From positions 960,001 to 1,024,000 of the forward strand of contig CAWCLO010000001.1 of the NCBI GenBank assembly GCA_963796455.1: DNA of 64,000 nt, in the 5' to 3' direction. Shown piece by piece: positions 19,359-48,320 of this stretch. The notes beneath the pieces are model-generated. The model was given only the letters and a program-made list of their open reading frames with translations, searched no databases and was not told the DNA's origin. The position numbers and the translations under genes were made by a program. The DNA is from Candidatus Sulfomarinibacteraceae bacterium (lineage in GTDB: Bacteria; Acidobacteriota; Thermoanaerobaculia; Thermoanaerobaculales; Sulfomarinibacteraceae). The stretch's first letter is position 1. The number at the start of each line of letters is the position of its first letter.

Positions 19359-19808
19359 GATCACTCTTGTCCCAGACAGAGTCTCGGATAGCGTGCAGGG
19401 ACAGCGCCAGAGAACGGTCGACAGCGTCAGCGAACTGGAGTCAGGGGCAGTGTTCAGCTATCAGCACTCAATTCGTCGGGTTCAAGAGCCGCAAGATAAT
19501 GGCCCGAACCTGATCGAAGGTGTTCATCGCCTCACGGGCGCCCGCCCACCGGCCACCCCGTTCCGTTGCACAACCCGGAGGTGGTGGCCACGCCGCCACC
19601 TGGACTCCTGAACGCTGCCGCCGATCGCTGCAAACTGATCGCTGACCGTTGTTCCCTGTCGCTGATCACTGTCGCTGCCGCTGCAATTCGGACGCGGACG
19701 AGGACGCGGGCACGGGGCAACGGCGAACCGAATATGCCCAAAACCAACCCGTAAACCCCGTGTTGTCAATCGGGCAACTTCAGATCACGATCTGTTTTGG
19801 ACAGCACT
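19359..19808. mobile_element. Copy A: L/R-framed element with four-helix-bundle gene remnant (minus strand, 19468-19540) plus shared ~100-bp module
   Basis: L end GATCACTCTTGTCC..., R end CACTGTCGCTGCCGCTGCAATTCGG; remnant reads EAMNTFDQVRAIILRLLNPTN*; colinear with the reverse complement of 39783-40293. Confidence 0.75.
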
Positions 19809-19972
19809 GATACAGGAAGATAGTCGATTCACCTGACGGCTTGCCACTGGTCGAGTGCGATGAATCCTGAATCCTGAGTCCTGTGGCCTGAATCCCGTTA
19901 CCGGGCGGGTTGGAAATAACTGAGAACTCATATACATTCCACTGTTCTGAGTAGATTGAACGGAGTGTGCTC

Positions 19973-22597
19973 ATGACAACCATGTCGCCGGAAGAGATCC
20001 GCGCGAAGCTCGATGACATATTGCCGGGGGTCCAGAAACCGACCCGCTATCTCGGCATCGAACGAAATCTGGTCCGCAAACCCTGGCAGTCGGTCAAGGT
20101 GCGAGTCGCCCTTGCCTTTCCAGATGCCTACGAGATCGGCATGTCCCATCAGGGGACTCGGGTGCTGTACCACCTCGTCAATCGACGTGACGACGCACTG
20201 GCCGAGCGGACCTTCGCCCCGATGCCGGACATGGCGGAAGCCCTGCGCAGCAACGATGTGCCCCTCTTCTCACTGGAAACCTATCAACCAGTTGGCGCAT
20301 TCGATATGGTCGGGATCTCGCTTCAGTCAGAGCTCAACTACATCAACATCCCGTACATGCTCGATCTTGCGCGGATCACGAGAAGGGCCTCGGACCGGGG
20401 TCACAATGAGCCCTTCGTCATCGGCGGTGGGCCCTGTACAGCCAACCCGGAACCAGTTGCCGACTTTTTCGATGCCATCCTGATCGGCGATGGAGAAGCG
20501 GCCCTCGACGACATCCTCGACACCATCGGCGACGGCCGCGCCGCCGGTTCCTCCAGGCTCGAGATCCTGAAGCGATTGGCCGCCATCCGTGGGGTCTATG
20601 TCCCAACCTTCTACAAATGGACGCCGGCAGAGGGCGACAAGCCTGCAACCTGGCAGACCCAGGACGCGCAAGCAGTTTTTCCGGTCGAGCGCGTCTGGGT
20701 GAAAGAACTCGATCCTGACAGCCAACCCGAATCGGTGATCGTTCCGTTTGCCGACGTGATCCAGGATCGTATCGGGATGGAAATCATGCGGGGCTGCACC
20801 CAGGGGTGCCGGTTCTGCCAGGCGGGTTACTGGTATCGACCGGTTCGCGAACACGACCCCGAAATGGTGCTCGAACGAATCCAGAAACAGGTTGCTGACA
20901 CCGGCTTCGAACAGGTTGGGCTACTCAGTCTCTCGACCGCCGACTACTCGCAGGTGGAACCGCTGGTATATCGCCTGTCGGAAGAACTGCAGGATCGCCG
21001 GGTCTCCGTGAGCCTGCCATCGCTCCGCGCCGATGCGTTCTCCGTCGGCCTTGCCGAGGCCGTTTCCCGGGTCCGCAAATCCGGTTTCACTTTCGCACCC
21101 GAAACCGGGTCCGATCGACTGCGGCGGGTCATCAACAAGACCTTCACCAACGCCGACATGGTGCAGGCTGCCGAGGCGGCGTTCTCGAAGGGCTGGAACC
21201 TCATCAAGGTCTACGCGATGATCGGGCTGCCCACCGAAACCGATGACGACCTCGAAGAGCTTGCCCGTTTGACCGAAGACATCCTCGAGGCCGCGCGTCG
21301 GTCCGGCAGAGGACGCAAGGTGCAGGTCAAGGTGTCGGTTGGCTGTTTCATCCCCAAGTCGTGGACGCCTTTTCAGTGGCAACCTTTTACCGGTGTTGGA
21401 GAACTCGAGCGCCGGATCCATCTCCTCAAGAACCGCTTCAAGAGGATTCGCGGCGCTCGCCTGACGTGGTCGGAACCGAGAGAAGCGGCTCTCGAGTCGC
21501 TGCTCTCGCGCGGCGGCCGAAATCTGTCCGAGACCATCGAACGAGCGCACGACCTCGGTGCCGTGTTCGACGGTTGGAATGATCTCCTCGACCTCGACGC
21601 CTGGCGCACAGCAATTGATGAGACCGGGGTCGATATGGAAACCGAACTGGGCGAGAGACAGCTCGGCGACACACTGCCCTGGGACGTCATCGACGCCGGC
21701 GTGCGCAAGGGTTATCTCAAGGCCGAATGGCGCCGCGCGCTCAAAGAGGACCAGACCGAAGACTGCAAGTGGGGCCACTGCTATCGCTGTGGGATTCCGG
21801 GCGACGGCGAAGACACCCAGCTCGCCCCGGCATCGCTGCCGGTGATTGGCGACGTTCTTCCCGAGGAGGACCAACCAAAGGCGGCAGCTTACCGCCTGCG
21901 GCCCGAGCCCCGCATCCCGCCACCGGACAAAAGCCGCGCCCAACCGCCGGTCTTTCGCCGCTTTCGCTTCACCTTCACCAAGACCGGCGACGCGAGATGG
22001 TTGTCTCACCGACAGATCATGGATGCCCTCGAACGGATTCTCCGCGCGGCCGAGATCCCGGTCCGATATACCGAAGGATTCAACCCCCATATCCGCCTAT
22101 CCATGGGCCCGGCCCTTTCGGTTGGTCACGAGGGTGAAGCAGAGATCTTCGACGTGGACTGCACCGCCCCGGTGCGCCCTCAGCACATCGAGCAGGCCAA
22201 CCGGCTCCTGCCTGACGGCGTCAAAATCACTGCTGTCCAGGCCTTGTTGCCCGGTGCCCCGTCACTCGGGAAGCTGATCGCAGCGGCCCGGTATCGGATA
22301 TCGGCGCCGCGCATCGACGATCGAAGCTGGCCAGCCTCGAGTGAAGGCCTTGCCGATGATCTGGGTTCAGGGGTCGGGAGCTGGGCCCTGCTCGAGGACG
22401 GCAGTCTTCGAGTCGAACTCAATGCCCGGCAAGAGGACGGCCCGACGGTTTCGGTCAAAAAGCTCCTTCTCGGTCTCGGACTCGACGAGGATGAATCCAT
22501 CCGGACAACGGTTGCCCGTGAAGGGCTGGTGCTCAGACCGCGAACCAAAAAAACAAAGCCTGCCGCAACGGAGACGACCGGGACGGTTCACCCGTGA
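19973..22597 (+). CDS. TIGR03960-type B12-binding radical SAM protein fused to a TIGR03936/DUF2344-type domain
   Basis: FPDAYEIGMS N-terminus, RGCTQGCRFC cluster motif, FAPETG; C-terminal FTKTGDARWLSH...YTEGFNPH domain. Confidence 0.88.
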   Translation: MTTMSPEEIRAKLDDILPGVQKPTRYLGIERNLVRKPWQSVKVRVALAFPDAYEIGMSHQGTRVLYHLVNRRDDALAERTFAPMPDMAEALRSNDVPLFSLETYQPVGAFDMVGISLQSELNYINIPYMLDLARITRRASDRGHNEPFVIGGGPCTANPEPVADFFDAILIGDGEAALDDILDTIGDGRAAGSSRLEILKRLAAIRGVYVPTFYKWTPAEGDKPATWQTQDAQAVFPVERVWVKELDPDSQPESVIVPFADVIQDRIGMEIMRGCTQGCRFCQAGYWYRPVREHDPEMVLERIQKQVADTGFEQVGLLSLSTADYSQVEPLVYRLSEELQDRRVSVSLPSLRADAFSVGLAEAVSRVRKSGFTFAPETGSDRLRRVINKTFTNADMVQAAEAAFSKGWNLIKVYAMIGLPTETDDDLEELARLTEDILEAARRSGRGRKVQVKVSVGCFIPKSWTPFQWQPFTGVGELERRIHLLKNRFKRIRGARLTWSEPREAALESLLSRGGRNLSETIERAHDLGAVFDGWNDLLDLDAWRTAIDETGVDMETELGERQLGDTLPWDVIDAGVRKGYLKAEWRRALKEDQTEDCKWGHCYRCGIPGDGEDTQLAPASLPVIGDVLPEEDQPKAAAYRLRPEPRIPPPDKSRAQPPVFRRFRFTFTKTGDARWLSHRQIMDALERILRAAEIPVRYTEGFNPHIRLSMGPALSVGHEGEAEIFDVDCTAPVRPQHIEQANRLLPDGVKITAVQALLPGAPSLGKLIAAARYRISAPRIDDRSWPASSEGLADDLGSGVGSWALLEDGSLRVELNARQEDGPTVSVKKLLLGLGLDEDESIRTTVAREGLVLRPRTKKTKPAATETTGTVHP

Positions 22598-22974
22598 GGG
22601 CACGATGGGTCATTCACTCGCGTTCGAATTTCAACGCGCACCACGCCCTGACCATTTACCTGGGCCAAGCGGAAGCCTCCCACAGTCACGAGTGGCAGGT
22701 CGAGGTACAGGTCGGCACGGATCGCCTCAACGACGAGGGATATGCGCTCGATTTCCACGCGGTACATCGGATTCTCAAAGATGCGGTGGCTCCCCTCGAG
22801 GACATGGACCTCAACCAACACCCTGAGATCGGCAAGCCGACACCCTCGGCCGAGCGGGTGGCCGAGGTGCTCGCCGGCCACCTGGCGCCGAAGTTCGAAG
22901 AGATCGGGGGCCGTCTCATTTCAGTGAGTGTGTGGGAGGGACCGGAGAACCGGGTTGATCTCAACCTCGGTTGA
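22594..22974 (+). CDS. 6-pyruvoyl-tetrahydropterin synthase/QueD-family protein with Glu-type active-site motif
   Basis: FNAHHAL...EASHSH...LDF...PSAE...VSVWE; GTGA overlap with the upstream gene. Confidence 0.8.
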   Translation: MRARWVIHSRSNFNAHHALTIYLGQAEASHSHEWQVEVQVGTDRLNDEGYALDFHAVHRILKDAVAPLEDMDLNQHPEIGKPTPSAERVAEVLAGHLAPKFEEIGGRLISVSVWEGPENRVDLNLG

Positions 22975-22992
22975 CACGGGACGCAACGGGGT

Positions 22993-23073
22993 TGGGCTAT
23001 GGGGCTATGCGCTATGGGGCTATGGGGCTATGCGCTACTTAGGGGCTATGGGGCTATGGGGCTATGGGGCTAT
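22993..23073. repeat. (GGGGCTAT)n left arm of four-helix-bundle cassette
   Basis: Imperfect tandem 8-mer array read directly from the sequence. Confidence 0.95.
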
Positions 23074-23100
23074 TGAGCAATCGGTGTTCGTTGGCAGGAG

Positions 23101-23457
23101 TCAATAGGACCTGCGCTTCTGAATGAATGAGGCAAGAGCGGCCGCCGTTCTGCCTTGCGATTCGCGCAGCTTTTCTGATTTCCCATCGGCCAAATATCCC
23201 AGCCTGTGAGAAAGGTCGATCAGGTACCCCAATTCCCGGACCGATCCAAATGCGATATCGAGAAAACGGTCGAATTCGGTTTCAGTCCTTCGGCCACAAC
23301 CTTCTACAATATTTGCGGCGACAGAGACGGAGCACCGTCTCATCTGGCTGACCAATCCATAGAGTTCGTCCTGTGGATAACTTTTTGTCGCTTGGTAAAC
23401 GAGAATCACCAGATCATCTGCCAACCGATAAACATCAAGCTTTCGATGGTCTCTCAA
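23101..23457 (-). CDS. Four helix bundle protein (TIGR02436 / 23S rRNA-IVP / bAvd-like)
   Basis: HRKLDVY...YPQDELYGLVSQMRRCSVSVAANIVEGCGR...FLDIAFGSVREL...LGYL is the family signature; visibly more AT-rich than its neighbours. Confidence 0.92.
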   Translation of the reverse strand: MRDHRKLDVYRLADDLVILVYQATKSYPQDELYGLVSQMRRCSVSVAANIVEGCGRRTETEFDRFLDIAFGSVRELGYLIDLSHRLGYLADGKSEKLRESQGRTAAALASFIQKRRSY

Positions 23458-23497
23458 AGCGTTCTCACTTTAGATCGGAGGCTCCAAACCCGTGATC

Positions 23498-23533
23498 GCC
23501 ATAGCCTTATAGCCCCACAGCCTCATAGCCTCA
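23498..23533. repeat. Degenerate (ATAGCCYY)n right arm, inverted relative to 22993-23073
   Basis: catagccttatagccccacagcctcatagcctca; ATAGCCCC is the reverse complement of GGGGCTAT. Confidence 0.85.
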
Positions 23534-25546: not shown

Positions 25547-25625
25547 GACCCCTCCTTCAATTCGGGCGGTTCAACCCGTGCACGAGCAGCACCGATCACG
25601 GGCGAGTATAGCGGGGAGACATGAA

Positions 25626-27423: not shown

Positions 27424-28109
27424 ATAGCGAACTCGTTCCGGAGTCCCTGCGCAGCTCCATCGCAGAGGATCTCCAGCTTGTCAGGCCACTGCCTCCGGCA
27501 TGGATGCGGACCCTGGAGGCGGCAGCGGTCGCGGCGCTGGGTCTGGCCGCGGTTGTCGTGTTCTTCCACCTCCAGATTCGACCGGACATGGATCAACTCC
27601 CGATGTGGTTGGGCTGGGGATGCACGGTGGTCCAGATTGGTATCGGCATCCTTTTGGTCGGCATGGCGATGCGCGAAGCGGTGCCGGGTCTCGGTGTTCC
27701 CAAGGGTGCCATCATCCTCGCCCTCGGTACCGCGGTCCTGATGCAACTCCTGGTGGCCGTCGTTACCTGGATGTACAGCCCCGGAATGCCGCTGACAGAA
27801 GAGATCTTCGTGAAAACCGGCATGTCCTGCGCGAGCCACGACACCTCGATGGCGTTGCCGGCATTGGCGGTGACCCTCTGGTTGGTCTTCAGAGCCTTGC
27901 CGCTGCGTCCTTCCATCGCGGGTCTGCTCGGTGGGGCCGGCGCCGCAGTCACCGCCGATGCGATGACCCACGTCCTGTGCCCAATGTCCGATCTGCGGCA
28001 CGTGCTTGTCTGGCATACCGGCGCCCTGCTCGGTCTGATGCTGATCGGATGGATCGTCGGCAAGGTTTGGGAGTGGAAGCGGTTTGGATCAGGCGCCGCG
28101 TCGGATTGA
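27420..28109 (+). CDS. NrsF/DUF1109-type membrane anti-sigma factor
   Basis: Multi-TM protein overlapping the sigma gene; DLQLVRPL N-terminus and C-P...H...WH C-terminal motif. Confidence 0.75.
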   Translation: MNSELVPESLRSSIAEDLQLVRPLPPAWMRTLEAAAVAALGLAAVVVFFHLQIRPDMDQLPMWLGWGCTVVQIGIGILLVGMAMREAVPGLGVPKGAIILALGTAVLMQLLVAVVTWMYSPGMPLTEEIFVKTGMSCASHDTSMALPALAVTLWLVFRALPLRPSIAGLLGGAGAAVTADAMTHVLCPMSDLRHVLVWHTGALLGLMLIGWIVGKVWEWKRFGSGAASD

Positions 28110-28121
28110 TTCGAAGAAACC

Positions 28122-28241
28122 GAGTTCGAAATTCGGAGTTCGGAGTTCGGAGTTCCGTGCATCCAACCACGCGGTGACACCCAAGATCATTCGAGAAATG
28201 GCCGAAAATTCCGAATTCCGAATTCATCATTCCGAATTCGA
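28122..28241. repeat. Inverted heptamer arms (GGAGTTC)n...(GAATTCC)n with no cargo gene
   Basis: Left arm 28122-28157, right arm 28207-28241. Confidence 0.85.
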
Positions 28242-28902: not shown

Positions 28903-29575
28903 AGAAACCGCAGATCACGCAGATGACATGAGGCGGTGCCGACCGTGGCTACACCGCCTCATGTCATCCTGAGCGAGGGAGTTTCGCGACCGAGTCGAAG
29001 GATCTACGCAGATAAGGAATCGCTACCGTCATCGTGTCGCTATCGCTATCGAAAAGCGAAAACTCCGAGGTCTATTCAATGGCGGTCCCGATCCCGATCC
29101 CGAATTGCAGCGGCAGCGACAGTGTTCAGCGTCAGCGACAGGCAACAGCGAACAGGGACAGCGACAGAGAACAGCGATCAGTGTTCAGCGGCAGCGGCAG
29201 CGATCAGGTCCGTGCCATGACCTGGCGGCTGTTGAACCCAAAAATTAACGTACCGTTCCCTGACGCTGACGCTGCTCGCCGACGCTGGTTCCTGTCGCTG
29301 TCGCCGACTCCTGTTCGCTGACGCTGTACACTGATCGCTGTTCCCTGTCTCTGACGCTGATCGCTGTCTAAGACCCTGTCTTGGACAAGAGTGATCGAGT
29401 ATCGAGTATCGAGTATCGAGCGAATGGTCTCCCTTTCCCCATGCTCCTCTGCCGATGGTTGACGCGCCAAAAATCCGAAATCCGAAATCCGAAATTGATC
29501 TCCCCTTCCCCCTTTCTCCCCTTCCCCCTTTCTCCCTTTCTCCCTTTCTCCCTTTCTCCTCTTCTACCCGGCACC
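28903..29575. mobile_element. Copy B: composite element (motif+hairpin+half palindrome, R/L frame 29099-29396, four-helix remnant 29201-29248, TATCGAG, AATCCGA and CTCCCTTT arrays)
   Basis: 28903-29182 closely matches the reverse complement of 47922-48230; remnant reads DQVRAMTWRLLNPK. Confidence 0.78.
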
Positions 29576-33998: not shown

Positions 33999-35143
33999 AA
34001 ATCGCCACCACCTGCGTGCACGCCGGCCATCAACCGGATGACGAAACCGGTGCGATCAACGTCCCCATCTACGCCTCCTCGACCTACGCCTACCGGGAGT
34101 TTGGCGAGCACCGAGGTTGGGAGTATTCGCGCACCGGGAACCCGACGCGAAATACCCTCGAACGGGCGATGGCCGAACTCGAGGGTGGGGCCGACGGTAT
34201 TGCCTTCGCCTCCGGGCTCGCCGCCATCGACGCGATCACCGATCTGCTCGAAGCGGGTGATCACATCGTCGCGGCCGACAATCTCTATGGCGGGACCTAT
34301 CGTCTTTTGACCACGACGACCGAAGGCCACGGCATACCCGTCAGTTTTGTCAACGCGGCAGACACCGAGGCCTTCCGAGACGCCTGCTCCGAACGTACCC
34401 GGCTGATATTTGTCGAGACCCCCACCAACCCACTCATGCAACTCGTCGATCTGGCGGCGGTAGCCGCGATCGCCAAGGGTTGCGGCGCCATGTTGGTGGT
34501 GGACAACACTTTTCTCACGCCGGTATTGCAACGACCGATCGATTTCGGCGCCGATCTCGTAGTGCATTCGACCACCAAATATCTCAACGGGCACTCCGAT
34601 GGTGTCGGTGGCGTGGTCGTGACCCGCAACCCCGAACTCGGCGAGCGCCTGCACACGGTCCAGAACAACGTCGGCGCCATCCTCGGGCCCTTCGACGCCT
34701 ATCTGGTCCTGCGTGGTTTGAAGACTCTGGCCATCCGGATGGCAACCCATGAATCCAACGCCCGGAACCTGGCCGGATTCCTGCTCACCCGCAGCGAACT
34801 CGTTTCGCTGCGATACCCCGGCCTCGCCAACCACCCGCAGCACCAACTGGCGCGCCAACAACAATCGGGATTCGGCGGCATGATTTCCTTCGATCTCGGT
34901 TCGCTTGAAAAGGCGCGCGCCTTTTGCAATGCCGTCGAGATCTTCACGCTTGCCGAATCACTCGGCGGTGTGGAGTCTTTGGTATGCCACCCGGCGACGA
35001 TGACCCATGCTTCGGTGCCAACCGAAGAACGGGAACGAATCGGGATCGGCGAAGGCCTGGTCCGGCTGTCGGTTGGTATCGAGCATGCGAGTGATCTCGA
35101 GGTGGATCTCACCCGCGCCCTCGACGCCGCCGCTCAGTTTTGA
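33995..35143 (+). CDS. mccB: Cystathionine gamma-lyase/synthase
   Basis: YSRTGNPT, ETPTNP, DNTF, HSTTKYLNGHSD and AESLGGVESL motifs; TTG start overlaps the upstream stop. Confidence 0.8.
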   Translation: MKIATTCVHAGHQPDDETGAINVPIYASSTYAYREFGEHRGWEYSRTGNPTRNTLERAMAELEGGADGIAFASGLAAIDAITDLLEAGDHIVAADNLYGGTYRLLTTTTEGHGIPVSFVNAADTEAFRDACSERTRLIFVETPTNPLMQLVDLAAVAAIAKGCGAMLVVDNTFLTPVLQRPIDFGADLVVHSTTKYLNGHSDGVGGVVVTRNPELGERLHTVQNNVGAILGPFDAYLVLRGLKTLAIRMATHESNARNLAGFLLTRSELVSLRYPGLANHPQHQLARQQQSGFGGMISFDLGSLEKARAFCNAVEIFTLAESLGGVESLVCHPATMTHASVPTEERERIGIGEGLVRLSVGIEHASDLEVDLTRALDAAAQF

Positions 35144-35232
35144 GTTATGAGTTTTGAGTTATGAGTTGAGAACCCGATATTTGGGTGGCGACTGGTAACT
35201 CAAAACTCAAAACTCAACTCTCAAAACTCAAA
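35136..35232. repeat. Inverted heptamer arms (TTTTGAG)n...(CTCAAAA)n with ~26-bp spacer
   Basis: Directly visible between convergent genes; the left arm contains the TGA stop of the upstream gene. Confidence 0.92.
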
Positions 35233-38408: not shown

Positions 38409-39661
38409 CAGGACCTCTCCTCCTGCGGCTTGCTGGGATCGGCCAGCGCCACCTTTTCGCCCTCTTCGATGCCCTCGACAATCTCCACCTCGGCGGTGGA
38501 GGCGATGCCGGTCACGACTCTGCGCTCCTCGAACCACCGCCGCCACTCCTGGCGTGGATCGTCCCGCCACGGTTCGTCTCCGCGGGCACCGGCATCAGCG
38601 ATTCCCGATGCGTTCGCATCTTCCGCGTCGTCTCCCTCTTCGCTCAACTCGACGGGGAGTGGTTCATCACGAAGCACGTAGACCATCTCCTCGTCACCAC
38701 GCAGAAAGACCGACTCCACGGGGATCGCAAGAACCTGTTCGCGGATCTCGCCGCGGATCTCGAGGTTGGCGGTCATGCCGGTCCTCAGTTCGTGGCCGAT
38801 CACCGCGAGGGAGATTTCCACATCGAAGACCTTGATCTGGTTGTCGAGTCGTGCCGCCGGCGCGATCCGGCTGATGGTCCCGTCAAAAAGAACCCGCGGG
38901 AAAGCATCGAGGGTCACCCGGGCGGTCTGGCCGAGGTGGATCTTGCCGATATCGACCTCGTTGATACCGGCCTTAACCAGCATCGTCCCGAGATCGGCGA
39001 CTGTGGAAATCACCGTGCCCGCGTTGAAAGACCCGCTGCCGGTCACGGTCTCACCAAGCTCCACGGGGCGTTCGATGACGACGCCGTCCATCGGAGAAAC
39101 GATATTCACGACCTGCCGGGGATTATCGCCAACCGGGATCCCGGATGCCTCGACCAGGCCGATCTGGTCCTGCGCTTCTTCCTGCGCCTGTACGGCCTGA
39201 CGATAACGGGTCTCCGCCTCACGGTTGACCTCGACCGAGATCAGACCGTTTTCGAAGAGCTTCCGTTTGGCGTCGTAGTCCTGCTTGGCATCTTCGAGAT
39301 CGATTGATGAGGCCTCCACCTGATTGCGGACCGACAGCAGGTTTTGCGCCTGATTGATATCGGGCTCGATCCGGGCGATGAGCTGGCCCTTCTTGACCAC
39401 GTCACCGGCTCGAATCGGCAGATCCACGACCCGGCCCGAAAGGTTGGATTTGATCTCGACCTTGACCTCGGGCTCGACCGTGCCGACCTCACGGACAATG
39501 ACCTGGACATCATCGATGCCTGCGGCCAGAGTCGGAATCTCGGGAGCCTCTTCTTCGTCGCCGTTTCCGTTGCCCTTGTTGATCGATGCGTAAGCCACCG
39601 CCGCAACGGTAATGAGCAACACGGCGATGATCACAAACCAGCGTTTTCGTTTCGGAGCCAT
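38408..39661 (-). CDS. Efflux periplasmic adaptor subunit (MacA-like)
   Basis: N-terminal TM, lipoyl/barrel-sandwich segments (GDVVKKGQ, SPMDGVV), coiled coil. Confidence 0.9.
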   Translation of the reverse strand: MAPKRKRWFVIIAVLLITVAAVAYASINKGNGNGDEEEAPEIPTLAAGIDDVQVIVREVGTVEPEVKVEIKSNLSGRVVDLPIRAGDVVKKGQLIARIEPDINQAQNLLSVRNQVEASSIDLEDAKQDYDAKRKLFENGLISVEVNREAETRYRQAVQAQEEAQDQIGLVEASGIPVGDNPRQVVNIVSPMDGVVIERPVELGETVTGSGSFNAGTVISTVADLGTMLVKAGINEVDIGKIHLGQTARVTLDAFPRVLFDGTISRIAPAARLDNQIKVFDVEISLAVIGHELRTGMTANLEIRGEIREQVLAIPVESVFLRGDEEMVYVLRDEPLPVELSEEGDDAEDANASGIADAGARGDEPWRDDPRQEWRRWFEERRVVTGIASTAEVEIVEGIEEGEKVALADPSKPQEERS

Positions 39662-39782
39662 CGGGTCCTCCCTCACTCAGAACAAACGACTCGATTCGCC
39701 CTTCATTACGTCGGAACGAGGAGAAATGTTCGCACCGGCACGGAAGTATCGAACCAATCGCAAGTTATCGATGTTGGATCAA

Positions 39783-40410
39783 AACTGTCCAAAACAAATC
39801 AACATGTGAAGTTTCCCAACTGACAACACGTGGTTTACGAGTTGGTTTTTGGCATTTCCGGTTCGCGGTTGCCCCGCGCCCGCGTCCGTTTCCGGAATGG
39901 AGCGGCAGCGACAGGGACAGGAACCGGCGAACAGGGACAGCGATCAGTGATCAGGTGCAGCGATCAGGTGCAGCGACGGCGTGGCCACCACCGGGTCGTT
40001 CAACAGAAGGGGTAGCCGGTGGGCGGCCGAGTTGGTAGAGACCGGTCGAACCACTGGAGAATCGCCTACGCCTCGGCCAAAGGGGTCGACAGCCACTTGC
40101 AGCTCCTCGCCCACGCCGGGGCGATCAGCCCGAACGGAGCCAGTGAAGCGATGAACGCCTTCGATCAGGTCCGTGCGATGACCTGGCGCCTCTTGAACCC
40201 GAAAATGTGAGCGCTGGTCGCTGCCGCTGTCTGCTGTTCCCCTGTCGCTGTCCCTGAATCTTGTCCGAGACACTATCTTGGACAACAGTGATCCAGTATC
40301 GAGCATCAAGTATCGAGTATCGAGCGAAAGCTCACCCTTTCTCCCTTTCCCCCTCCCTTTCCCCCTTTCCCCCTTTCTCACATTCGGGTACGGGATCGGG
40401 ATCGGAACGG
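39783..40410. mobile_element. Copy C: shared module, R/L frame (39892-40293), longest four-helix remnant, TATCGAG and CCCTTT arrays
   Basis: Colinear with the reverse complement of copy A. Confidence 0.78.
40024..40210 (+). pseudogene. C-terminal half of a four helix bundle gene
   Basis: GRVGRDRSNHWRIAYASAKGVDSHLQLLAHAGAI...AMNAFDQVRAMTWRLLNPKM* fits the EG.GR...IA.GS..E half of the family; the N-terminal half is absent. Confidence 0.7.
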
Positions 40411-40468
40411 ACGGGCGGACGGCGAGCAGCCTGTGTAAAATACCGGTCAATCGGCGAAGGAGGATGCC

Positions 40469-41680
40469 ATGCAGGAGTTGCTGAGCAAGGAGAACCTCGA
40501 TTATCAGGAACGAGCCCGCGAGGTGGCCGAAAAGTACGTGCGGCCCCGGGCGGCCGAGCTCGACCAGACCGGCGAATACGGCTGGGACATCCTGGAGGCC
40601 CTCAAGTCCTACGATCTGACCGGGTCGTGGATACCCAAAGAGTATGGCGGCCACGATGCGGGCGTCCTCAACCTCTGTCTCATCGTCGAGCAGCTGTCGC
40701 GGGCCTGCGGCGGAGTCGGTGTGGCCTACGCGGTCAACGCTCTCGGGTCCTTTCCGATCATCATCGGCGGCACCGAGGAACAGAAACAGAAGTACCTCCC
40801 GTCGATCGCAAAGGGTGAAAACCTGATCGCCTTTGGTCTCTCAGAAAAAGCATCGGGCTCCGATGCCGGCAGCTTGCGAACCACCGCCACCGAGGACGGC
40901 GACGATTTCATCCTCAACGGCCAGAAGAAGTGGAACACCAACGGCGGTGTGGCATCGTTCTTCACCATCTATGCCCTCACCCGGCCGGATCGAGGAATGC
41001 GGGGAATCTCGGCATTCATCGTGGAAAAAGACACCCCCGGTTTTACGATCGGAAAACGCGAAGACACGATGGGCATCCGCACCGTGTCGGTCAACGAGCT
41101 CGAGTTCACGGATTGCCGGGTACCATCGTCACAGCTCATGGGTCACACCGAGGGCAACGGGTTCAAAAACGCCATGATGACCCTCGATCGCGCCCGGCCC
41201 GGCGTCGCCGCTCAGGCACTGGGCCTCGCCCAGGGAGCCTTCGAGTGGGCCATGCGTTATACCTCCGAGCGAAAACAATTCGGCCAGATGGTGATGTCGC
41301 ACCAGGCGGTCCAGTTCATGCTTGCCGATATGGCAACCCAGATCGAGGCCGCCCGGCAGTTGGTCTATGCCTCGGCAAGGCTGATCGATTCGGGAGCAAA
41401 AAACATCAACAAACTGGCGGCCATGGGCAAGGTCTTCGCTACCGACACGGCGATGAAGGTGACCACCGACGCGGTCCAGCTCTTCGGTGGTTATGGATAC
41501 TGCAAGGACTATCCAATCGAGAAATACATGCGGGACGCCAAGATCACCCAGATCTATGAGGGCACCAACCAGGTTCAGCGTCTGGTGATCGGCCGCGCGT
41601 TGACCCGGGAACTCAAGGAGCTGACCGGCCACCTCGATGTGATCGTCGAGCATTTTCCGGAGGACGAGAAGGACGACTGA
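40469..41680 (+). CDS. Acyl-CoA dehydrogenase
   Basis: FGLSEKASGSD, NGQKKWNTNG, QLFGGYGY and TQIYEGTNQVQR motifs. Confidence 0.95.
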   Translation: MQELLSKENLDYQERAREVAEKYVRPRAAELDQTGEYGWDILEALKSYDLTGSWIPKEYGGHDAGVLNLCLIVEQLSRACGGVGVAYAVNALGSFPIIIGGTEEQKQKYLPSIAKGENLIAFGLSEKASGSDAGSLRTTATEDGDDFILNGQKKWNTNGGVASFFTIYALTRPDRGMRGISAFIVEKDTPGFTIGKREDTMGIRTVSVNELEFTDCRVPSSQLMGHTEGNGFKNAMMTLDRARPGVAAQALGLAQGAFEWAMRYTSERKQFGQMVMSHQAVQFMLADMATQIEAARQLVYASARLIDSGAKNINKLAAMGKVFATDTAMKVTTDAVQLFGGYGYCKDYPIEKYMRDAKITQIYEGTNQVQRLVIGRALTRELKELTGHLDVIVEHFPEDEKDD

Positions 41681-41689
41681 CGTCGTCCT

Positions 41690-42196
41690 GAATTCGGAGT
41701 TCGGGCGGAGTTCGGAGTTCGGAGTTCGGAGTTCGGAGTTCGGAGTTCGGAGTCACTCTAGTCCAAGACAACGTCTCGGACAGCGTCCAGGGGCAGGGAA
41801 GAGCAAACAGCGACGGCGAACAGCCGCCCATGACGCGATGAAGGCGTTCGACCAGGTCCGTGCCATGACTTGGCGGCTGTTGAATCCGAAGGAGTGAGTG
41901 CTGTCTGCTGTCGCTGACCGCTGTCCCTGTTCGCTGCTGCCTGTCGCTGACGCTGGACACTGTCGCTGCCGCTGCAATTCGGGATTGGGATCGGGTACGG
42001 GCCAATCGCGAACAGGATATGTCAACAACCAACCAGTCAACCTCGGGTTGTCACATGGGCAACTTCACGTGGCGAACAGGATATGACAGCAGTGGTTCGG
42101 AGTTCTGAGTTCGAAATGCCGTCGACCCACCCCGGGGACCATGGCGTTCCGATCGATCGCAGTTTGCAATCCCGAATTCCGAATTCCGAACTTTGA
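41690..42196. mobile_element. Copy D: L/R-framed element (41753-41983) plus shared module, inserted in a (GGAGTTC)n arm; remnant 41819-41897 flipped relative to the frame
   Basis: Remnant reads HDAMKAFDQVRAMTWRLLNPKE*; the GGAGTTC array resumes at about 42095; inverted GAATTCC arm at 42170-42195. Confidence 0.78.
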
Positions 42197-42197
42197 C

Positions 42198-42836
42198 CTA
42201 GCCCTCATCCAGCGAACGGTGATACTCGTGCTCCCAGTCGTTCCACCATTCCTTCTCGATGCCGCCGCAGGTCACGGCAAAGGCCGAACATGCAACGCAG
42301 CCGTCGCCACGAATGGCATCCTCGTCATCGAGGGGAGGGAACCGCTCGATCAGTTCTTCACCGAGAACACGGGCGGCTTCCTCGGCGGGTTCTGGCGGCC
42401 GACCCTCGAGGCGGGCGACTCCGCCGCGTATCAGGCGTTGCTTCGCTTCAGGGAAAATGACGCTGTCTTCCTTGTCCAGGTGCTCCCACAGATGATGGGC
42501 GATGCGTCGGGCGATCTCAGGAGCTCTGTCAGGGTCTTTCGCAGCCGCCTCGAGCTCGACGACCATCGCCTCCGACTCGCGGTGTTCGGCATTCATGATG
42601 GCGATCGGCCCACGATCTCCGGGCACCTCGGCGCGTTCGACGAGAATGGGGAAAAGGACTTTTTCTTCACGCTCATGGTGGTAGCCACCAATATAGACCC
42701 TTAGAACGCGAACGAAATCGTCAACATCAGAACTGGAGACAGCCCCCTCCTTCGAGCGTTCCGCGAGGCGCACCAGCGATCCTGCCAGTCGATCAACGAG
42801 ACGGTGTTCGGCTTCGAACTCCTCGAAAAGCTTCAT
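42198..42836 (-). CDS. Hemerythrin (HHE) domain protein with Cys-rich C-terminal tail
   Basis: EH...HHEREE..LFP...EH...HLDKED motifs; tail GCVACSAFAVTCGG. Confidence 0.8.
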   Translation of the reverse strand: MKLFEEFEAEHRLVDRLAGSLVRLAERSKEGAVSSSDVDDFVRVLRVYIGGYHHEREEKVLFPILVERAEVPGDRGPIAIMNAEHRESEAMVVELEAAAKDPDRAPEIARRIAHHLWEHLDKEDSVIFPEAKQRLIRGGVARLEGRPPEPAEEAARVLGEELIERFPPLDDEDAIRGDGCVACSAFAVTCGGIEKEWWNDWEHEYHRSLDEG

Positions 42837-44566
42837 CAGTCGATGGCGGGGACCACGACACCCGCCGCTCCCGGGCCCCGTGGGTCCTGTGCCGCCTTCA
42901 ACTCCCCGGCCATCACACCGCGCACCGCATGCACTTCGCCAAGGCTTCTGGTATCACGAAGCTCATGTCCGCGCCCTAACAAAACTTTCGCCGTGTCCGG
43001 GCCGAATGCATCCGCTTCGAAAAAAATGGCGTCAGGAAACCACTGGTGGTGAATGCGTCCGCGGTCCACCGCCGCCTGCAGTTCATCCGAATCGACAATC
43101 AGGTTGAGAAGCACCTGGGCCGTGGCGGTCGGAATGCGCGATCCACCCGGAGAGCCGACAACGATCACCTCGCGGCCCTTCCAGGCCACAGTGGGGCTCA
43201 TGGATGACAGCATCCGTTTGCCCGGGCCGACGGAGTTGGCCTCTCCCTGGATGAGACCGTAATAGTTCGGTTTTCCCGGTGCAACGGCAAAATCGTCCAT
43301 CTCGTTGTTGAGAATGAAGCCCGCACCGGGGACCAGCAGGCCACATCCATAGCTCCCGTTGAGGGTGGTGGTCAAAGACACCGCGTTGCCATCGCCATCC
43401 ATTACGGAAAGGTGAGTGGTTTCCGGCGATTCCTCGGCCAATTCGCGCGACCAGGAGGCAACGCTGTCGGAGGGTGTAGCCCTATCGGTGGTTATTTCGG
43501 CCGCCCGAAGATCGAGCCAATCGGGGTCGAGGAGCTGGCTGGAATTCGCAAGGCTGGTCCTCGGATCGCCGAGGAGATAACGATCCGCGTAGGCCCGCCG
43601 CCATACCTCCGCCAAAAGGTGTGAACGATCAGCACCGAAACGGGGCAATTCTTCCCACTCCAGTCGTTCAAGAAGGCCGCAGGTTTCGCCGAGAATAATG
43701 CCACCCGAGGATGGCAGCGGCATGGAAATCACATCCCAACCATAGGCCTTGAATCTGACCGGTTTGCGCCAAACGGCCCGATAGGCCGAAAGATCGGCGG
43801 CTCTCAAGATCCCGCCGTGAAGCCGAGATGCCATTTCGACGGCGGCCGCAATCGGACCCTCTGTCAACGCCGGCACGCCCCGTTCGGCATAGGCCTCGAG
43901 CGTGGCGGCAAGATGGGGCAAACGCATGACACTGCCCGGTTTGGGCGGTTTGCCACCCGGAAACCAGACCGCCGCCGTCTCCGGAAAACTTAACAATTTT
44001 TCGGAGCTGGCCTCGAGCGACCGCTCGAGGCGGCGGGTGACCACGAATCCCTCACGCGCGAGCCGGATCGCAGGCTCGACCACCCGTTTCCATGGCAACT
44101 GTCCGTACTTCTTATGGAGTTCAAAAAGACCGGTCGGTGAGCCCGGCACGCCCGCCGCCAGCGGGCCGATCAACGACGCCTCCCGACGGGGCTCACCTTT
44201 GGCGTCGAGGTACATATCGTGGGTCGCGTCGGCCGGGGCGGTCTCGCGGAAATCGAGGGTGTTGACTTCGCCCCGGATCCGCACAACTGCAAACCCACCA
44301 CCTCCCAGGTTTCCAGCCGATGGATGAACAACGGCCAGGGCCAGGGCGGTGGCGACAGCGGCATCGGCGGCGTTGCCGCCGGCGGCAAGGGTTTCGAGAC
44401 CGGCCGCCGTGGCCGCAGGCGCGGCACACGCAACCGCACCCCCGGTACCTCGCGCCGCCTCCGGGTGGGCGGCGATGGCCGGATCTGCGATCACAATCGA
44501 AAGAAAAAAGGCGGCCGTTGTGACCGCGATCAGGGAACAGTGGCGGATGGTTCGTGGCGTCATCAT
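42836..44566 (-). CDS. ggt: Gamma-glutamyltransferase
   Basis: GGNAADAA, GGGGF, DFRE, ETTHLS, LNNEMDDF, LSSMSPT and GSPGG motifs. Confidence 0.95.
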   Translation of the reverse strand: MMTPRTIRHCSLIAVTTAAFFLSIVIADPAIAAHPEAARGTGGAVACAAPAATAAGLETLAAGGNAADAAVATALALAVVHPSAGNLGGGGFAVVRIRGEVNTLDFRETAPADATHDMYLDAKGEPRREASLIGPLAAGVPGSPTGLFELHKKYGQLPWKRVVEPAIRLAREGFVVTRRLERSLEASSEKLLSFPETAAVWFPGGKPPKPGSVMRLPHLAATLEAYAERGVPALTEGPIAAAVEMASRLHGGILRAADLSAYRAVWRKPVRFKAYGWDVISMPLPSSGGIILGETCGLLERLEWEELPRFGADRSHLLAEVWRRAYADRYLLGDPRTSLANSSQLLDPDWLDLRAAEITTDRATPSDSVASWSRELAEESPETTHLSVMDGDGNAVSLTTTLNGSYGCGLLVPGAGFILNNEMDDFAVAPGKPNYYGLIQGEANSVGPGKRMLSSMSPTVAWKGREVIVVGSPGGSRIPTATAQVLLNLIVDSDELQAAVDRGRIHHQWFPDAIFFEADAFGPDTAKVLLGRGHELRDTRSLGEVHAVRGVMAGELKAAQDPRGPGAAGVVVPAID

Positions 44567-44636
44567 GCGAGTGTACTGCAACCAGGTGGAACCAAAACAG
44601 TCCCTGGCGCGTAGTCAAGATATGGGAGGAAAAACC

Positions 44637-45086
44637 ATGCCCGTTTCTTCAGAATCGAGCCCGGCAGAGGTGCCGGCGAACGATCTTGCACGCCACATCC
44701 GCCGCACACTCGGCCAACTCGAGCATGTGGATCGCGATACGGCCGGATATCTCAACTCTCTCGCCTTCATTCTGCAACGGGTTGCGGGCGCCGACGACGA
44801 GATCAGCGATGACGAGGTCGATCGGATGGAAAAGATTCTGATCGAACACGCAGAAATCACCGCCCCACAGGCCGTATTGACGGTCGAGATCGCCAAACAC
44901 CGTTGGCAGCTGGCCGATTGTTGCTGCTCCTACCGATCGTCGCGCGAACTCCGGGAACGACTCGATCCTCGATCGCGAAAACAACTGCAGGGCTTTCTCC
45001 GTTCGGTTGCCAATGCCGACGGTGTTGTCCACCCTTCGGAGCAGGCAGAAATCCGGCAGATTTCTGCCGAACTCGGGATGATCTGA
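44637..45086 (+). CDS. TerB/DjlA-N-like protein
   Basis: VAGADDEISDDE and VANADGVVHPSE paired motifs. Confidence 0.75.
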   Translation: MPVSSESSPAEVPANDLARHIRRTLGQLEHVDRDTAGYLNSLAFILQRVAGADDEISDDEVDRMEKILIEHAEITAPQAVLTVEIAKHRWQLADCCCSYRSSRELRERLDPRSRKQLQGFLRSVANADGVVHPSEQAEIRQISAELGMI

Positions 45087-45117
45087 GCCTCTTTTCCGGT
45101 GCTGCGAGCTTTTTCTG

Positions 45118-45193
45118 GAGTTTTGAGGTCTGAGTTTTGAGTTTTGAGTTGAGGAACCGTCATCAGTGGTGGTGGAACTCAAAACTCAGACCT
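45118..45193. repeat. Inverted (TTTTGAG)n arms, empty
   Basis: Perfect 18-bp inverted repeat AGGTCTGAGTTTTGAGTT (45126-45143) / AACTCAAAACTCAGACCT (45176-45193). Confidence 0.9.
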
Positions 45194-45264
45194 GAGCTTT
45201 TTCGGCGCCCGGAATCAGCTATCATTCCTATTCAAGGCCGTGTCCGGTGCGGCTGGAGGAATGG

Positions 45265-46224
45265 ATGACTTGGAACTACTCAGAAAAAACCACCGAGCTC
45301 TTTATGGCTGCGGTGCAGGGAAAACCTGGGACCCACCTCGGGGAAATCGAAGACTCCGACGGTTACGGCGAGCACGGTTCGATCGCGTGCGGCGACGCAC
45401 TCCGATTCACCTTCAGAGTCGAGCGTCACCCGACTGAACCGGTCAAAGACCGAATAACCGAAGCGCGCTACCTGACCTTTGGATGCACCTCGGCGATCGC
45501 CGCATCGGAAGCGCTGTGCGCCATCATCGAGAAAGGCGACTACACGCCGATCGAGGCCCTCAAAATCACCAACAACGACATCGTCGATTATCTCGAGGGG
45601 CTGCCCCAGGCGAAGATCCACTGTTCGGTCATGGGTGCCGAGGCACTCGAAGCAGCGGTTTTCAACTGGGCCCAGAAACGGGGAGTGGACCTGGTCGAGT
45701 TGGGTGTCGATATCCGGCGCGAGGAGCAGGAGGAGGGCCGGCTGGTCTGCACCTGCTTTGGGCTCACCGAGCCGTATATCGAACGCAAGATCGCGGAGCT
45801 CGAACTCAAGACCATTCCCGAAATCACCAATGCCATCAAGGCGGGCGGCGCCTGCATGTCGTGCCACCACACCCCAGGAGGCTTGCAGGATCTCCTGGCG
45901 AAAGTCTGGGGACAACAACCAACGACGTTCAAGGAACTCCCGGTGCTGCCGACGTCGCGCGAACCCAGAGCGCAACCCCCTCGGGAAATGTCACCGTTCA
46001 AGTTCGCCAAACTCGTGGAACACGTGCTCGACGAACGCGTGCGCCCGCAACTTGCCAAGGACGGCGGAGACATCGAAATCATCGACATCAAAGACCAGGT
46101 GGTCTACGTCGGCATGACGGGAGCATGTTCGGATTGCATGGGTTCGACCAACACCATCAAGATGCTCGTCGAACAGGCTCTGAAGGATCAGATCGACGAA
46201 CGAATTCGAGTCGTCCAGGTTTGA
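45265..46224 (+). CDS. nifU: NifU-type Fe-S scaffold (IscU + BFD-like 2Fe-2S + Nfu domains)
   Basis: ACGD, FGCTSAIA and KIHCS; CTC...CMSC; DGGDIE...GACSDC. Confidence 0.92.
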   Translation: MTWNYSEKTTELFMAAVQGKPGTHLGEIEDSDGYGEHGSIACGDALRFTFRVERHPTEPVKDRITEARYLTFGCTSAIAASEALCAIIEKGDYTPIEALKITNNDIVDYLEGLPQAKIHCSVMGAEALEAAVFNWAQKRGVDLVELGVDIRREEQEEGRLVCTCFGLTEPYIERKIAELELKTIPEITNAIKAGGACMSCHHTPGGLQDLLAKVWGQQPTTFKELPVLPTSREPRAQPPREMSPFKFAKLVEHVLDERVRPQLAKDGGDIEIIDIKDQVVYVGMTGACSDCMGSTNTIKMLVEQALKDQIDERIRVVQV

Positions 46225-46241
46225 TTCGATCTTTACAGATC

Positions 46242-46288
46242 TCATTTTTTGCCGCGCGTGCCCGCCTGGCGACCGCGGCAAAAAATGA
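46242..46288. repeat. Perfect 15-bp inverted repeat between nifU and nifS
   Basis: TCATTTTTTGCCGCG-N17-CGCGGCAAAAAATGA. Confidence 0.85.
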
Positions 46289-46309
46289 ATAGCAGACAGG
46301 AAACGAACA

Positions 46310-47545
46310 GTGGACGTGATCTACCTCGACAACAACGCAACCACCAGGGTGGCACCCGAAGTCGTAGAGGCGATGATGCCCTACCTGACGGATGAGTACT
46401 TCAACCCGAGTTCCATGTACGAAGCGGCGCGGGTGCCGGCCGACGCGGTGACCGCCGCGAGAAAGACGATTGCCCGCTGTCTTGGCAAGGTGCGCCCGAG
46501 CGAGGTCCTTTTCACCTCCTGTGCCTCGGAAAGCAACAACCACGCGGTCTTCGGCACGATTGCCGCCAATCCGGAACGACGCCACGTGGTCACCACCGGG
46601 GTCGAACACCCGGCCATCTACGAGGTCGGGAAGGATCTCGAGCGGCGAAATCTCGAGGTCGACTTCGTACCAGTCGACAGCCAAGGACGAATCGACACCA
46701 GGGAATTCGTTCGGGCCCTTCGCCCCGACACCCTACTGGTTTCGGTGATGCACGCTAACAACGAAACCGGTGTCATCTTTCCGGTGGAGGAGCTGGCGCG
46801 AATCAGCAAAGAGACCGACCCCTCGATCGTTTTTCACACCGATGCCACCCAGACCACCGGCAAACTTCCGATCGATCTGCGTGGAGCCTTCAAAAACGTC
46901 GACCTGCTCTCCTTCTCCGGCCACAAACTGCACGCCCCGAAGGGCATCGGAGCGCTGTATATCCGACGCGGCACACCGTGCCGGCCGTTCCTGCTCGGCG
47001 GGCACCAGGAAGACGGCCGTCGCGCCGGCACCGAAAACGTGGCCTTCATCGTCGGTCTGGCGCGGGCCCTCGAGTTGGCCGTGGAGCGGCACGCCGAAGA
47101 CGAACCCAGGATCACCGCCATGCGCGACCGTCTCCAGCGTGAACTTGTGAAACGAATTCCCTATCTCGAGGTCAACGGCGGCGAGGCCCCCCGACTCGAC
47201 AACACCCTGAACGTCGCCTGCCACTTCGTCGAAGGCGAGGGCATCCTCTACCAGCTTTCAGAGCACGGTATCTGCGCCTCGTCGGGCTCTGCCTGCACCT
47301 CCGGCTCCCTCGAGCCCTCGCATGTTCTGCGGGGCATGAAGGTGCCCTTTACCGCCGTCCACGGATCGGTTCGCTTCAGCCTCAGCCACTACACCACCGA
47401 TGCCGAGATCGACAAGGTCATCGAGGTCTTCCCCGAGATCATCGCCAGCCTGCGCCGCCTTTCACCCTACTGGGACTCCACGAAAAACGCGCCCCGACCC
47501 GAGGCGCTGGAGATGCTCGAAGAAACCGAGATGCCGCACGCCTGA
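46310..47545 (+). CDS. nifS: Cysteine desulfurase NifS
   Basis: YLDNNATT, ANNETG, SGHKLHAPKG and SSGSACTSGSLEPSHVL motifs. Confidence 0.93.
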   Translation: MDVIYLDNNATTRVAPEVVEAMMPYLTDEYFNPSSMYEAARVPADAVTAARKTIARCLGKVRPSEVLFTSCASESNNHAVFGTIAANPERRHVVTTGVEHPAIYEVGKDLERRNLEVDFVPVDSQGRIDTREFVRALRPDTLLVSVMHANNETGVIFPVEELARISKETDPSIVFHTDATQTTGKLPIDLRGAFKNVDLLSFSGHKLHAPKGIGALYIRRGTPCRPFLLGGHQEDGRRAGTENVAFIVGLARALELAVERHAEDEPRITAMRDRLQRELVKRIPYLEVNGGEAPRLDNTLNVACHFVEGEGILYQLSEHGICASSGSACTSGSLEPSHVLRGMKVPFTAVHGSVRFSLSHYTTDAEIDKVIEVFPEIIASLRRLSPYWDSTKNAPRPEALEMLEETEMPHA

Positions 47546-47589
47546 CGGGAGCGCCGGCGACCGTCCCCGCACCCGGTGATGGCAGAGGG

Positions 47590-48320
47590 GCAGAGGAGAA
47601 AGGGTGAAAGGGTGAAAGGGAGAACCGTACCGGAAACTCTGTTCGAGACAAGGAGAGAGTATTCGCAATCCCTAATCACTCTTGTCCAATACAGGGTTGC
47701 GGACCGCGATCAGGGACGGCGACAGCGATCAGCGTCAGCGACAGCGTTCAGTGGTCAGCGGCAGCGACCAGCCACCGGGGCAGCGTCAGCGTCGGCGAAC
47801 AGCCCTTACTGGTCGGGTTCAAGAGCCGCCAGGTCATCGCTCGGACCTGATCGAAGGCGTTCATCGCGTCGCGGGCGGCTGTCGCACTGATCGCCCCGGG
47901 GGTGGCCTCGCCGTCACTGCACCTGATCGCTGTTCTCTGTCGCTGTCCCTGTTCGCTGTTGCCTGTCGCTGGCGCTGGCGCTGAACACTGTCGCTGCCGC
48001 TGCAATTCGGGATCAAGATCGGGATCGGGACCGCCATTGAATGGACCTCGGAGTTTTCGCTTTTCGATAGCGATAGCGATAGCGATAGCGATGACGGTAA
48101 GGATGACGGTAGGGATTCCTTATCTGCGTAGATCCTTCGACTCGGTCGCGAAGCTCCCTCGCTCAGGATGACATCAGGCGGTGTAGCCTCGGCCAGCACC
48201 GCCTCATGTCATCTGCGTGATCTGCGGTTTGTGATGGGATCCGATGCGATGGAATTCCCAATTCCCAATTCCCAATTCCTAATTCCTAATTCCTAATTCC
48301 TACCGGCTCCCCTGCTCCCA
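47590..48320. mobile_element. Copy E: composite element with L/R frame (47675-48011), four-helix remnant on minus strand (47806-47900), half palindrome, hairpin and AATTCCY array
   Basis: Remnant reads PGAISATAARDAMNAFDQVRAMTWRLLNP; the right part is the reverse complement of copy B's left part. Confidence 0.78.

Follow-up and report, generated by a model that had tools for sequence, protein, structure and literature searches.

Five repeated segments of a Sulfomarinibacteraceae genome are internally deleted copies of a probable IS4-derived mobile insertion cassette carrying a four-helix-bundle gene

Introduction

Why does a bacterial chromosome carry, within less than 30 kb, five separate copies of the 3' end of one small gene? 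The question is raised by a 64,000-nucleotide (nt) stretch of a Candidatus Sulfomarinibacteraceae bacterium (GenBank assembly GCA_963796455.1, contig CAWCLO010000001.1, positions 960,001 to 1,024,000 of the forward strand), called here the window (G000:C1:960001-1024000, where G000 is the source genome, 5.0 Mb and 90.5% complete; its relatives are labelled G0xx). An original prediction made from the window described five segments (A, 19359-19691; B, 29099-29396; C, 39892-40293; D, 41753-41983; E, 47675-48011) with two shared terminal motifs (L and R), inward inverted arms, and a fragment of a four-helix-bundle gene, and proposed a transposase-less mobile family that had spread and decayed. We find that the five segments are internally deleted versions of a cassette of about 850 bp, composed of a leader hairpin and a gene between two arms, which most probably is a mobile insertion cassette (MIC) derived from the insertion sequence (IS) family IS4 and moved in trans, with a cargo older than its frame.

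Ends of the cassette and target duplications

All five segments are present at these positions, carry both motifs and the inward CAG-rich and CTG-rich arms, and encode the predicted peptide (AMNTFDQVRAIILRLLNP in copy A, DQVRAMTWRLLNP in copy B, AMNAFDQVRAMTWRLLNP in copies C and E, and AMKAFDQVRAMTWRLLNP in copy D). The R motif had been taken for an outer end and is in fact internal, as a module of about 110 to 130 nt and a second terminal repeat lie beyond it; homology between sister copies runs about 130 nt further, up to this second inverted repeat. The true ends are 16- to 17-bp inverted repeats, CACTGCTGTCCAAAAC and CACTCTTGTCCAAGAC, the former being the M end. In one 99%-identical pair of copies (C4:42245 and C7:250907), set between unrelated flanks, the homology starts at the M repeat, takes in the arms, and stops at the L repeat, the L end of one copy being cut short. 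The idea that the arms are rebuilt at each jump was rejected, since this pair shares its arms.

A perfect 9-bp flanking repeat is found in 21 of 86 inward-facing end pairs, compared with 2.6 expected from shuffled pairings (maximum of 9 in 300 shuffles), and the other repeat lengths between 2 and 16 give no comparable signal beyond weak echoes at 2 and 16. The 86 pairs include 5 spurious pairs of 35 to 36 bp; among the 81 longer pairs that remain, 39 match at 8 or 9 of the 9 positions. In the relative G006, 12 of 20 duplications, taken from loci chosen for exact ends, are perfect. The target consensus AT-N5-AT is typical of the local heptamer arrays, 49 of 97 of which abut an end, and several target duplications fall outside the heptamer pattern, for example TCTTTGCGT.

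The features of the window are listed in Table 1. All copies are intergenic, with copy A sitting between fmt and a radical-SAM gene. On the 513-nt core (leader hairpin plus gene) that served as query and to which core positions refer, the internal deletion of copy A starts in the leader hairpin, stops within the 3' part of the gene, and leaves core positions 2-70 and 439-505, and the M module of this copy is the counterpart of the end downstream of the transposase in autonomous IS4 elements. In copy C, the 5' leader arm is fused to the 3' half of the gene at a GGCCGA microhomology (core 71|327 deletion). The cargo of copy D is inverted relative to the frame, which would most simply result from recombination between the inverted arms, and its target duplication lies within a GGAGTTC heptamer array. 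The M end was not found in copies B and E, which keep only the L end. In its place, both share an upstream extension of about 200 nt (28905-29099 and 48017-48230; 95 to 98% alike), which is made up of different hairpin and hexamer repeats, has related pieces at 16461-16786, and is possibly another mobile composite.

Table 1. Positions of cassette copies and associated features; coordinates refer to the window unless a locus in a relative is named
Feature	Position	Strand	Details
Copy A, whole framed element	19362..19809	-	L end 19362, M end 19809
Copy A, left target duplication ATGCAGGAT	19353..19361	+	Partner 19810-19818 ATACAGGAA, match 7/9
Copy A, M module and terminal repeat	19692..19809	-	Outside the R motif of the original prediction
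Copy B	29099..29393	+	R motif, CAG arm, gene end (last ~14 codons, 29201-29244), CTG arm, L end (29393)
Copy C, whole framed element, worn M end	39780..40290	+	Flanks match 5/9
Copy C, gene remnant, 55 codons	40043..40210	+	Weak PF05635/TIGR02436 match, below cut-off
Copy D, whole framed element	41754..42094	+	Gene remnant 41831-41890
Copy D, left target duplication GTTCGGAGT	41745..41753	+	Partner 42095-42103 identical, 9/9
Copy E	47677..48011	-	L end (47677), CTG arm, 3' gene remnant 47813-47899, CAG arm, R motif
Sixth, arm-only remnant of the cassette family, absent from the original prediction	51995..52069	+	
Miniature elements in relatives	L019, L050 (G021); L039-L040 (G020); L033-L038 (G024, G008)		
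Acido-Lenti-1 hairpins in G006	L169:279-325; L005:100-146; L005:275-321		

The intact cassette and its gene

Intact framed genes do exist in the source genome. A genome-wide BLASTN search with the core returned 182 loci, a copy family far beyond chance, of which 63 are near full, most with an intact gene; 33 of the 63 have both ends, 22 one end, and 8 none. The only gene in intact cassettes encodes a protein of 117 amino acids, which scores 59.7 bits with TIGR02436 (cut-off 24) and 57.7 bits with PF05635 (cut-off 33.8). The assignment of fragment C to these families therefore stands for the intact gene, which passes both cut-offs, and fails for fragment C alone, which reaches 15.7 bits with either model. 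The structure model of the protein consists of four helices (predicted local distance difference test score [pLDDT], 94), and its closest Foldseek matches are 2GSC and 2RLD, with a template modeling (TM) score of about 0.8 (0.82) and E-values from 3e-5 to 2e-3. The likeness to Avd is weaker (TM score, 0.74 to 0.79; weak E-values; 8 to 13% identity). Both the hidden Markov model scores and the structural matches place the protein in the IVP/Avd structural family, as had been predicted.

PF05635 has 70 matches in the source genome, most of them from one subfamily; the gene is carried by 21 of 40 relatives, with up to 48 matches each, and about 4,000 protein clusters match the protein at an E-value of 1e-10 or below. 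Since it is intact in dozens of copies in a single genome, the cargo gene likely has a function. The ratio of nonsynonymous to synonymous substitution rates (dN/dS) is 0.14 at a dS of 0.35 over 53 open reading frames (ORFs) of normal length, a set that leaves out 6 unparsed and 4 broken copies of the 63 and is biased downward by the exclusion of broken copies; at least 6 of the 63 near-full copies are broken (5 flagged and one further frameshift). The corresponding polymorphism ratio (pN/pS) is 0.12 to 0.14 for variants common to several copies, compared with 0.43 for singletons. Purifying selection thus acts on the cassette gene. None of the copies lies inside an rRNA gene, as the rRNA motifs are found at C10:141116 and C10:145108 and the nearest core loci at C10:120628 and C10:147300.

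Source of the ends

A scan for the M end in a wider collection of genome contigs yielded 118 loci in 14 of the 64 parts of the collection. Together with loci from congeners, the scan gave 11 elements of 1344 to 1418 bp that carry both ends, all with a YREK-type transposase frame and 5 with perfect 9-bp duplications; many of the other hits stop at contig breaks. All four transposases tested score 240 to 251 bits with the NF033592 IS4 transposase model (cut-off 115) and are composed of DUF4372 and DDE_Tnp_1. The transposase reads from L to M in 10 of the 11 elements, so that the cassette gene runs in the opposite direction. The CA------T ends and the 8- to 10-bp repeats fit the subgroup IS4Sa (PMC2266710), an assignment suggested by the end pattern only.

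That the cassette lacks a transposase was predicted correctly, as no end pair in the source genome encloses a transposase frame and the only gene is that of the PF05635 family. The accompanying implication that no known mobility route applies was mistaken, the outer ends and the 9-bp duplications being those of the IS4 family. The cognate IS4 transposase was not found in the 90.5%-complete source genome by tblastn with the cognate frames, and PF14706 and PF01610 had no matches there, other transposase families not having been searched. The lone DDE_Tnp_1 gene of this genome was considered as a helper and set aside, being unrelated and without these ends.

Frame and cargo across relatives

Exact IS4-type ends number 90 in G000, 71 in G006, and 45 in G021, with 0 to 4 in each of the other 38 genomes. 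Among the 81 framed pairs of G000, a near-full gene is enclosed by 32, a partial gene by 15, and another hairpin by 28, which leaves 6 with neither. The IS4 frame thus moves without the gene, and the multiplication of gene-less derivatives shows that it can do without the protein in cis. In a gene-less subfamily of about 450 bp in G000 (e.g., C1:10444-10899), most of the leader and of the gene has given way to another hairpin, and the motif of this subfamily occurs 90 times in the genome and in 28 of the 81 framed pairs. The copies in G006 are young, mostly 84 to 99% identical, and 19 of 20 have the gene. The ends in G021 are largely found on elements of about 388 bp with other cargo; miniatures of 388 bp and 311 bp with the same IS4 ends, 9-bp duplications, and different hairpin cargo occur at the loci given in Table 1.

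The cargo of leader, gene, and arms recurs in G008, G014, and G017, there within GGCTCATCCGGAATT ends, which are shared with ISL3 elements. These ISL3-type ends are found in 11 of 40 relatives and in none of G000, G006, and G021. Their 8-bp duplication is perfect in 4 of 10 pairs, with an identity of 0.93 compared with 0.84 for cross-paired flanks, a signal that is only suggestive since 10 of 20 loci gave no pair. In G017, an intact ISL3 element directly adjoins an ISL3-ended four-helix-bundle cassette (L245:948-3186), both in AACGTT-type arrays, a possible snapshot of cargo capture. The internal R motif of the IS4-framed copies (CCGAATTGCA; 29099-29110, 47999-48011, and others) is similar to the inner portion of the ISL3-type end in relatives (CCGGAATTGCA) and may be a relic of an earlier frame, the likeness spanning ten bases only.

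In G040 and G004, with 40 and 36 gene matches, the copies inspected were mostly unframed, neither an IS4 nor an ISL3 frame being recognized by eye at any of the loci displayed (15 of 25 in G040 and 8 in G004). In a gene tree of 49 rows, copies group by genome, and 13 G000 and 6 G006 copies form one clade (support, 100/99) that is nested among ISL3-framed and unframed copies, with unframed copies basal. The tree is rooted at its midpoint only, and its G000 rows come from 14 of the 63 copies drawn at random, one of which was dropped for its short alignment. From this pattern, the cargo of leader hairpin, gene, and CAG arms looks older than the IS4 frame.

Decay and recombination

All five window copies have lost the middle of the cassette; the 5' leader arm survives in copies A and C and is the most often retained part genome-wide (169 of 182 loci at core position 41). 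Truncation of the 5' end, as left by retroelements, was rejected as the cause of the kept 3' end, the internal deletions starting in the leader hairpin instead. The 71|327 deletion occurs at 9 loci. Its carriers have full copies, and not each other, as nearest relatives, so that a single origin is unsupported and the scar either recurs or spreads by conversion. Linkage between variable sites falls with distance, from an r2 of 0.126 within 10 nt to 0.03 beyond 80 nt (permutation P < 0.0005), and this decay within about 80 nt indicates that copies recombine. The proposal of a transposase-less mobile family that spread and decayed is supported.

Leader hairpin

The leader of about 140 nt has a predicted fold of -86.9 kcal/mol (z-score, -8.2), with compensatory changes in 15 of 46 pairs among 18 sequences. 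Its outer stem is near-invariant across the genus and pairs with the GGAGG site and the start codon. No Rfam family matches the leader; the only Rfam matches, elsewhere in two G006 loci, are Acido-Lenti-1 hairpins (RF01687), located within the upstream arm of a framed cassette and in flanking sequence (Table 1). For a fold-back promoter, 112 of 138 leaders could be parsed and 26 could not. The bottom-strand arm contains TTGACA in 92 of the 112 and TA at a spacer of 16 to 17 in 93, whereas the gene-side arm contains TTGACA in 94 and TA in none. This asymmetry of the arms would fit a single-stranded-DNA promoter of the Frpo/ssp type.

Orthologous sites in relatives

The genes flanking copy A are adjacent in most of 24 congeners, and none of the 16 orthologous spacers read at this site holds the cassette, in line with the predicted polymorphism of insertion sites among relatives. 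One of these spacers, in G021, is occupied by a 388-bp element that has both ends in common with the cassette and carries other cargo. Judged from coordinates only, the spacer at site C measures about 730 nt in G000 and 84 to 94 nt in seven relatives, and that at site D about 500 nt in G000, 80 to 186 nt in six relatives, and 570 to 673 nt in three. Among the public sequencing runs listed, none was of RNA and the best share was 0.18. Four public read runs aligned to window positions 38500-49000 gave low, patchy coverage and no usable junction, too little to reveal empty alleles.

Proposed mechanism and alternative explanations

Since the ends are of the IS4 type, the duplications measure 9 bp, and no cognate transposase was found in the source genome, the cassette appears to work like an IS4-derived MIC moved in trans. 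A DUF4372 and DDE transposase, absent from the assembly and present in a congener, would bind both ends and insert the cassette, for the most part at AT-N5-AT sites within heptamer arrays and with a stagger of 9 bp. The older cargo (CAG arm, hairpin leader, gene, and CTG arm) would have been captured once by IS4 ends, in the gene lineage of G000 and G006, and separately by ISL3 ends in other species. Inserted copies would decay by deletions starting in the hairpin, which would account for the survival of only the 3' end of the gene in the five window copies, and recombination would swap short tracts between them. In double-stranded DNA and in read-through RNA, the leader likely keeps the gene silent; it may fire the gene from folded single-stranded DNA, and the protein would act briefly while the cassette is single-stranded. 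This last step is the weakest of the mechanism, and we put it forward with more doubt than confidence.

Several observations weigh against this reading. Only 33 of the 63 near-full cores retain both ends, and 8 have none. Of the 41 genomes, G017 alone yielded the cognate transposase (L031:1206-2483); the three genomes richest in the ends (G000, G006, and G021) gave none, so that the helper is inferred. A large share of the target signal comes from tandem heptamers, in which a 9-bp repeat can form without duplication, the shuffled pairings being a partial control. The relatives are only about 70% identical, which defines empty sites at the level of the gene spacer and not of the base, and, within the species, neither movement (transposition or excision) nor an empty allele was observed. 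For the leader, the -10 hexamer is poor beyond its TA, being mostly TACCCC, and the asymmetry of the arms could equally fit an outward-facing double-stranded promoter. Finally, a purely passive cargo leaves the low pN/pS of shared variants (0.12 to 0.14) and the unframed expansions in G040 and G004 unexplained.

These last points lead to a different view of the protein, in which the hairpin, gene, and arms are themselves a selfish unit with its own way of spreading that involves the protein, and the IS ends are later, optional vehicles. Such a view is compatible with the IS4 frame, differs from our reading on the role of the protein, and is in our opinion possible though not probable. It would accommodate the 40 and 36 gene matches of G040 and G004, whose displayed loci show neither frame, the basal place of unframed copies in the midpoint-rooted tree, the near-invariance of the outer leader stem across the genus, and the difference in pN/pS between shared variants and singletons, which looks as if only working copies left descendants. 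The predicted fold is, however, a simple four-helix bundle whose top matches include no catalytic neighbour, and derivatives without the gene roughly equal intact copies in number. Unframed copies may also have lost old frames, as have 8 of the 63 G000 cores, G004 holds 14 exact ISL3-type ends as well, and host-level selection together with gene conversion could yield the same pN/pS pattern. [quoted passage not shown] This advantage would be the reason for the repeated capture of the unit by unrelated insertion sequences (IS4 here and ISL3 in congeners) and for its rise to about 40 copies without a frame, and the intervening sequences of rRNA would be insertions of this element into rRNA.

Two routes without DNA transposition fare worse. 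If the copies had spread chiefly through recombination or gene conversion among repeat arrays already in place, this would explain the decay of linkage with distance, the 71|327 deletion at 9 loci with full copies as nearest relatives, and the heptamer arrays that abut an end. For new insertions, this route is already largely refuted by duplications that follow the local sequence, non-array targets included, by the sharp ends of the 99%-identical pair in unrelated flanks, and by the identity of the ends with those of autonomous IS4 elements; we judge it improbable as the main route. Still more remote is a retroelement in which an Avd-like protein and a reverse transcriptase leave 5'-truncated copies, an origin to which the superposition of the model on Avd and the 3' gene end kept by all five window copies had pointed. 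Against it, PF00078 (reverse transcriptase) has no match in the 90.5%-complete source genome, it is the middle and not the 5' end that copies A and C have lost, the leader arm is kept at 169 of 182 loci, and both ends are IS4-type DNA ends. A link to diversity-generating retroelements, of which the original prediction had named Avd as an accessory factor, likewise found no support, intact cassettes carrying no gene besides that of the 117-residue protein.

Relation to known systems

Among known elements, the mobile insertion cassette MIC231 of Bacillus cereus, related to the IS231 subgroup of IS4 and described as moved in trans by a cognate transposase (PMC6199540), comes closest to our preferred reading of an IS4-derived cassette. 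As described there, two IS4-family inverted repeats surround a passenger gene without a transposase within 0.7 to 3 kb. The present cassette likewise combines ends of a known IS, a passenger without a transposase, and a duplication of the length typical of the family, with mobilization in trans being inferred. It differs from MIC231 in that its ends fit IS4Sa and not IS231, in its more than 60 near-full copies in one genome, and in its single conserved cargo with its own hairpin leader and arms, which elsewhere is found in ISL3 ends or unframed. With IS4 elements of the IS4Sa pattern as described (PMC2266710), it shares the CA------T ends and the 9-bp duplication, and its cognate autonomous elements share the YREK transposase; unlike IS4 elements, the cassette itself has no transposase and its gene has the opposite direction.

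The ORF-bearing intervening sequences of 23S rRNA (S23p/PF05635; Coxiella and Leptospira), in which this kind of gene first became known, have the same protein family and fold, complementary arms that enclose the gene, and adjoining short tandem repeats, according to the account in PMC4990558, which also describes a Xanthomonas family protein as a homopentamer. Unlike these, the cassette is intergenic, multi-copy, and under purifying selection, and has a strong GGAGG site. The leader may resemble the Frpo/ssp promoters of conjugative plasmids as these are described (PMC9849209; bioRxiv 10.64898/2026.01.09.698686), with a stable stem-loop upstream of the gene and predicted -35 and -10 boxes that would be rebuilt only when the strand folds; unlike them, it is chromosomal, lies on a transposable cassette, and has a weak -10 box. 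The BrickBuilt miniature inverted-repeat transposable element of Porphyromonas gingivalis is also intergenic and contains tandem repeats, whereas it is described as non-coding, with 19 copies, one 23-nt repeat, and no conserved passenger gene (PMC4596501). The cassette is thus neither an autonomous IS, nor an rRNA intervening sequence by location, nor a diversity-generating retroelement, and no published description of it was found in a literature search whose coverage mostly excluded subscription papers.

The vehicle, an IS-ended cassette moved in trans, is already known in kind; among its features, the copy number, the purifying selection on the passenger, and the capture of one cargo by two IS families within a genus would seem odd to a specialist. 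The cassette bears on where the ORF-bearing intervening sequences of rRNA came from and on what their protein does, for which PMC4990558 lists remnants of transposition and a role of the ORF in mobility among untested ideas. Both ideas become directly testable with the defined IS4 ends and the candidate transposase of G017, together with the more than 60 natural alleles and the many gene-less controls that G000 holds.

Other repeats in the window

A second, distant four-helix-bundle gene lies at 23101-23457 on the minus strand of the window (TIGR02436, 101 bits; 24% identical to the cassette protein), and GGGGCTAT octamer arrays at 22983-23082 adjoin it. Tandem arrays of 7- or 8-mers, often as inverted pairs, occur in almost every spacer of the window, for example at 14228-14434, 16382-16451, 28108-28239, 35135-35190, 45118-45159, 48238-48313, and 52118-52172. 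As IS4-framed copies favour one type of array and ISL3-framed copies another, the arrays may be shared landing sites.

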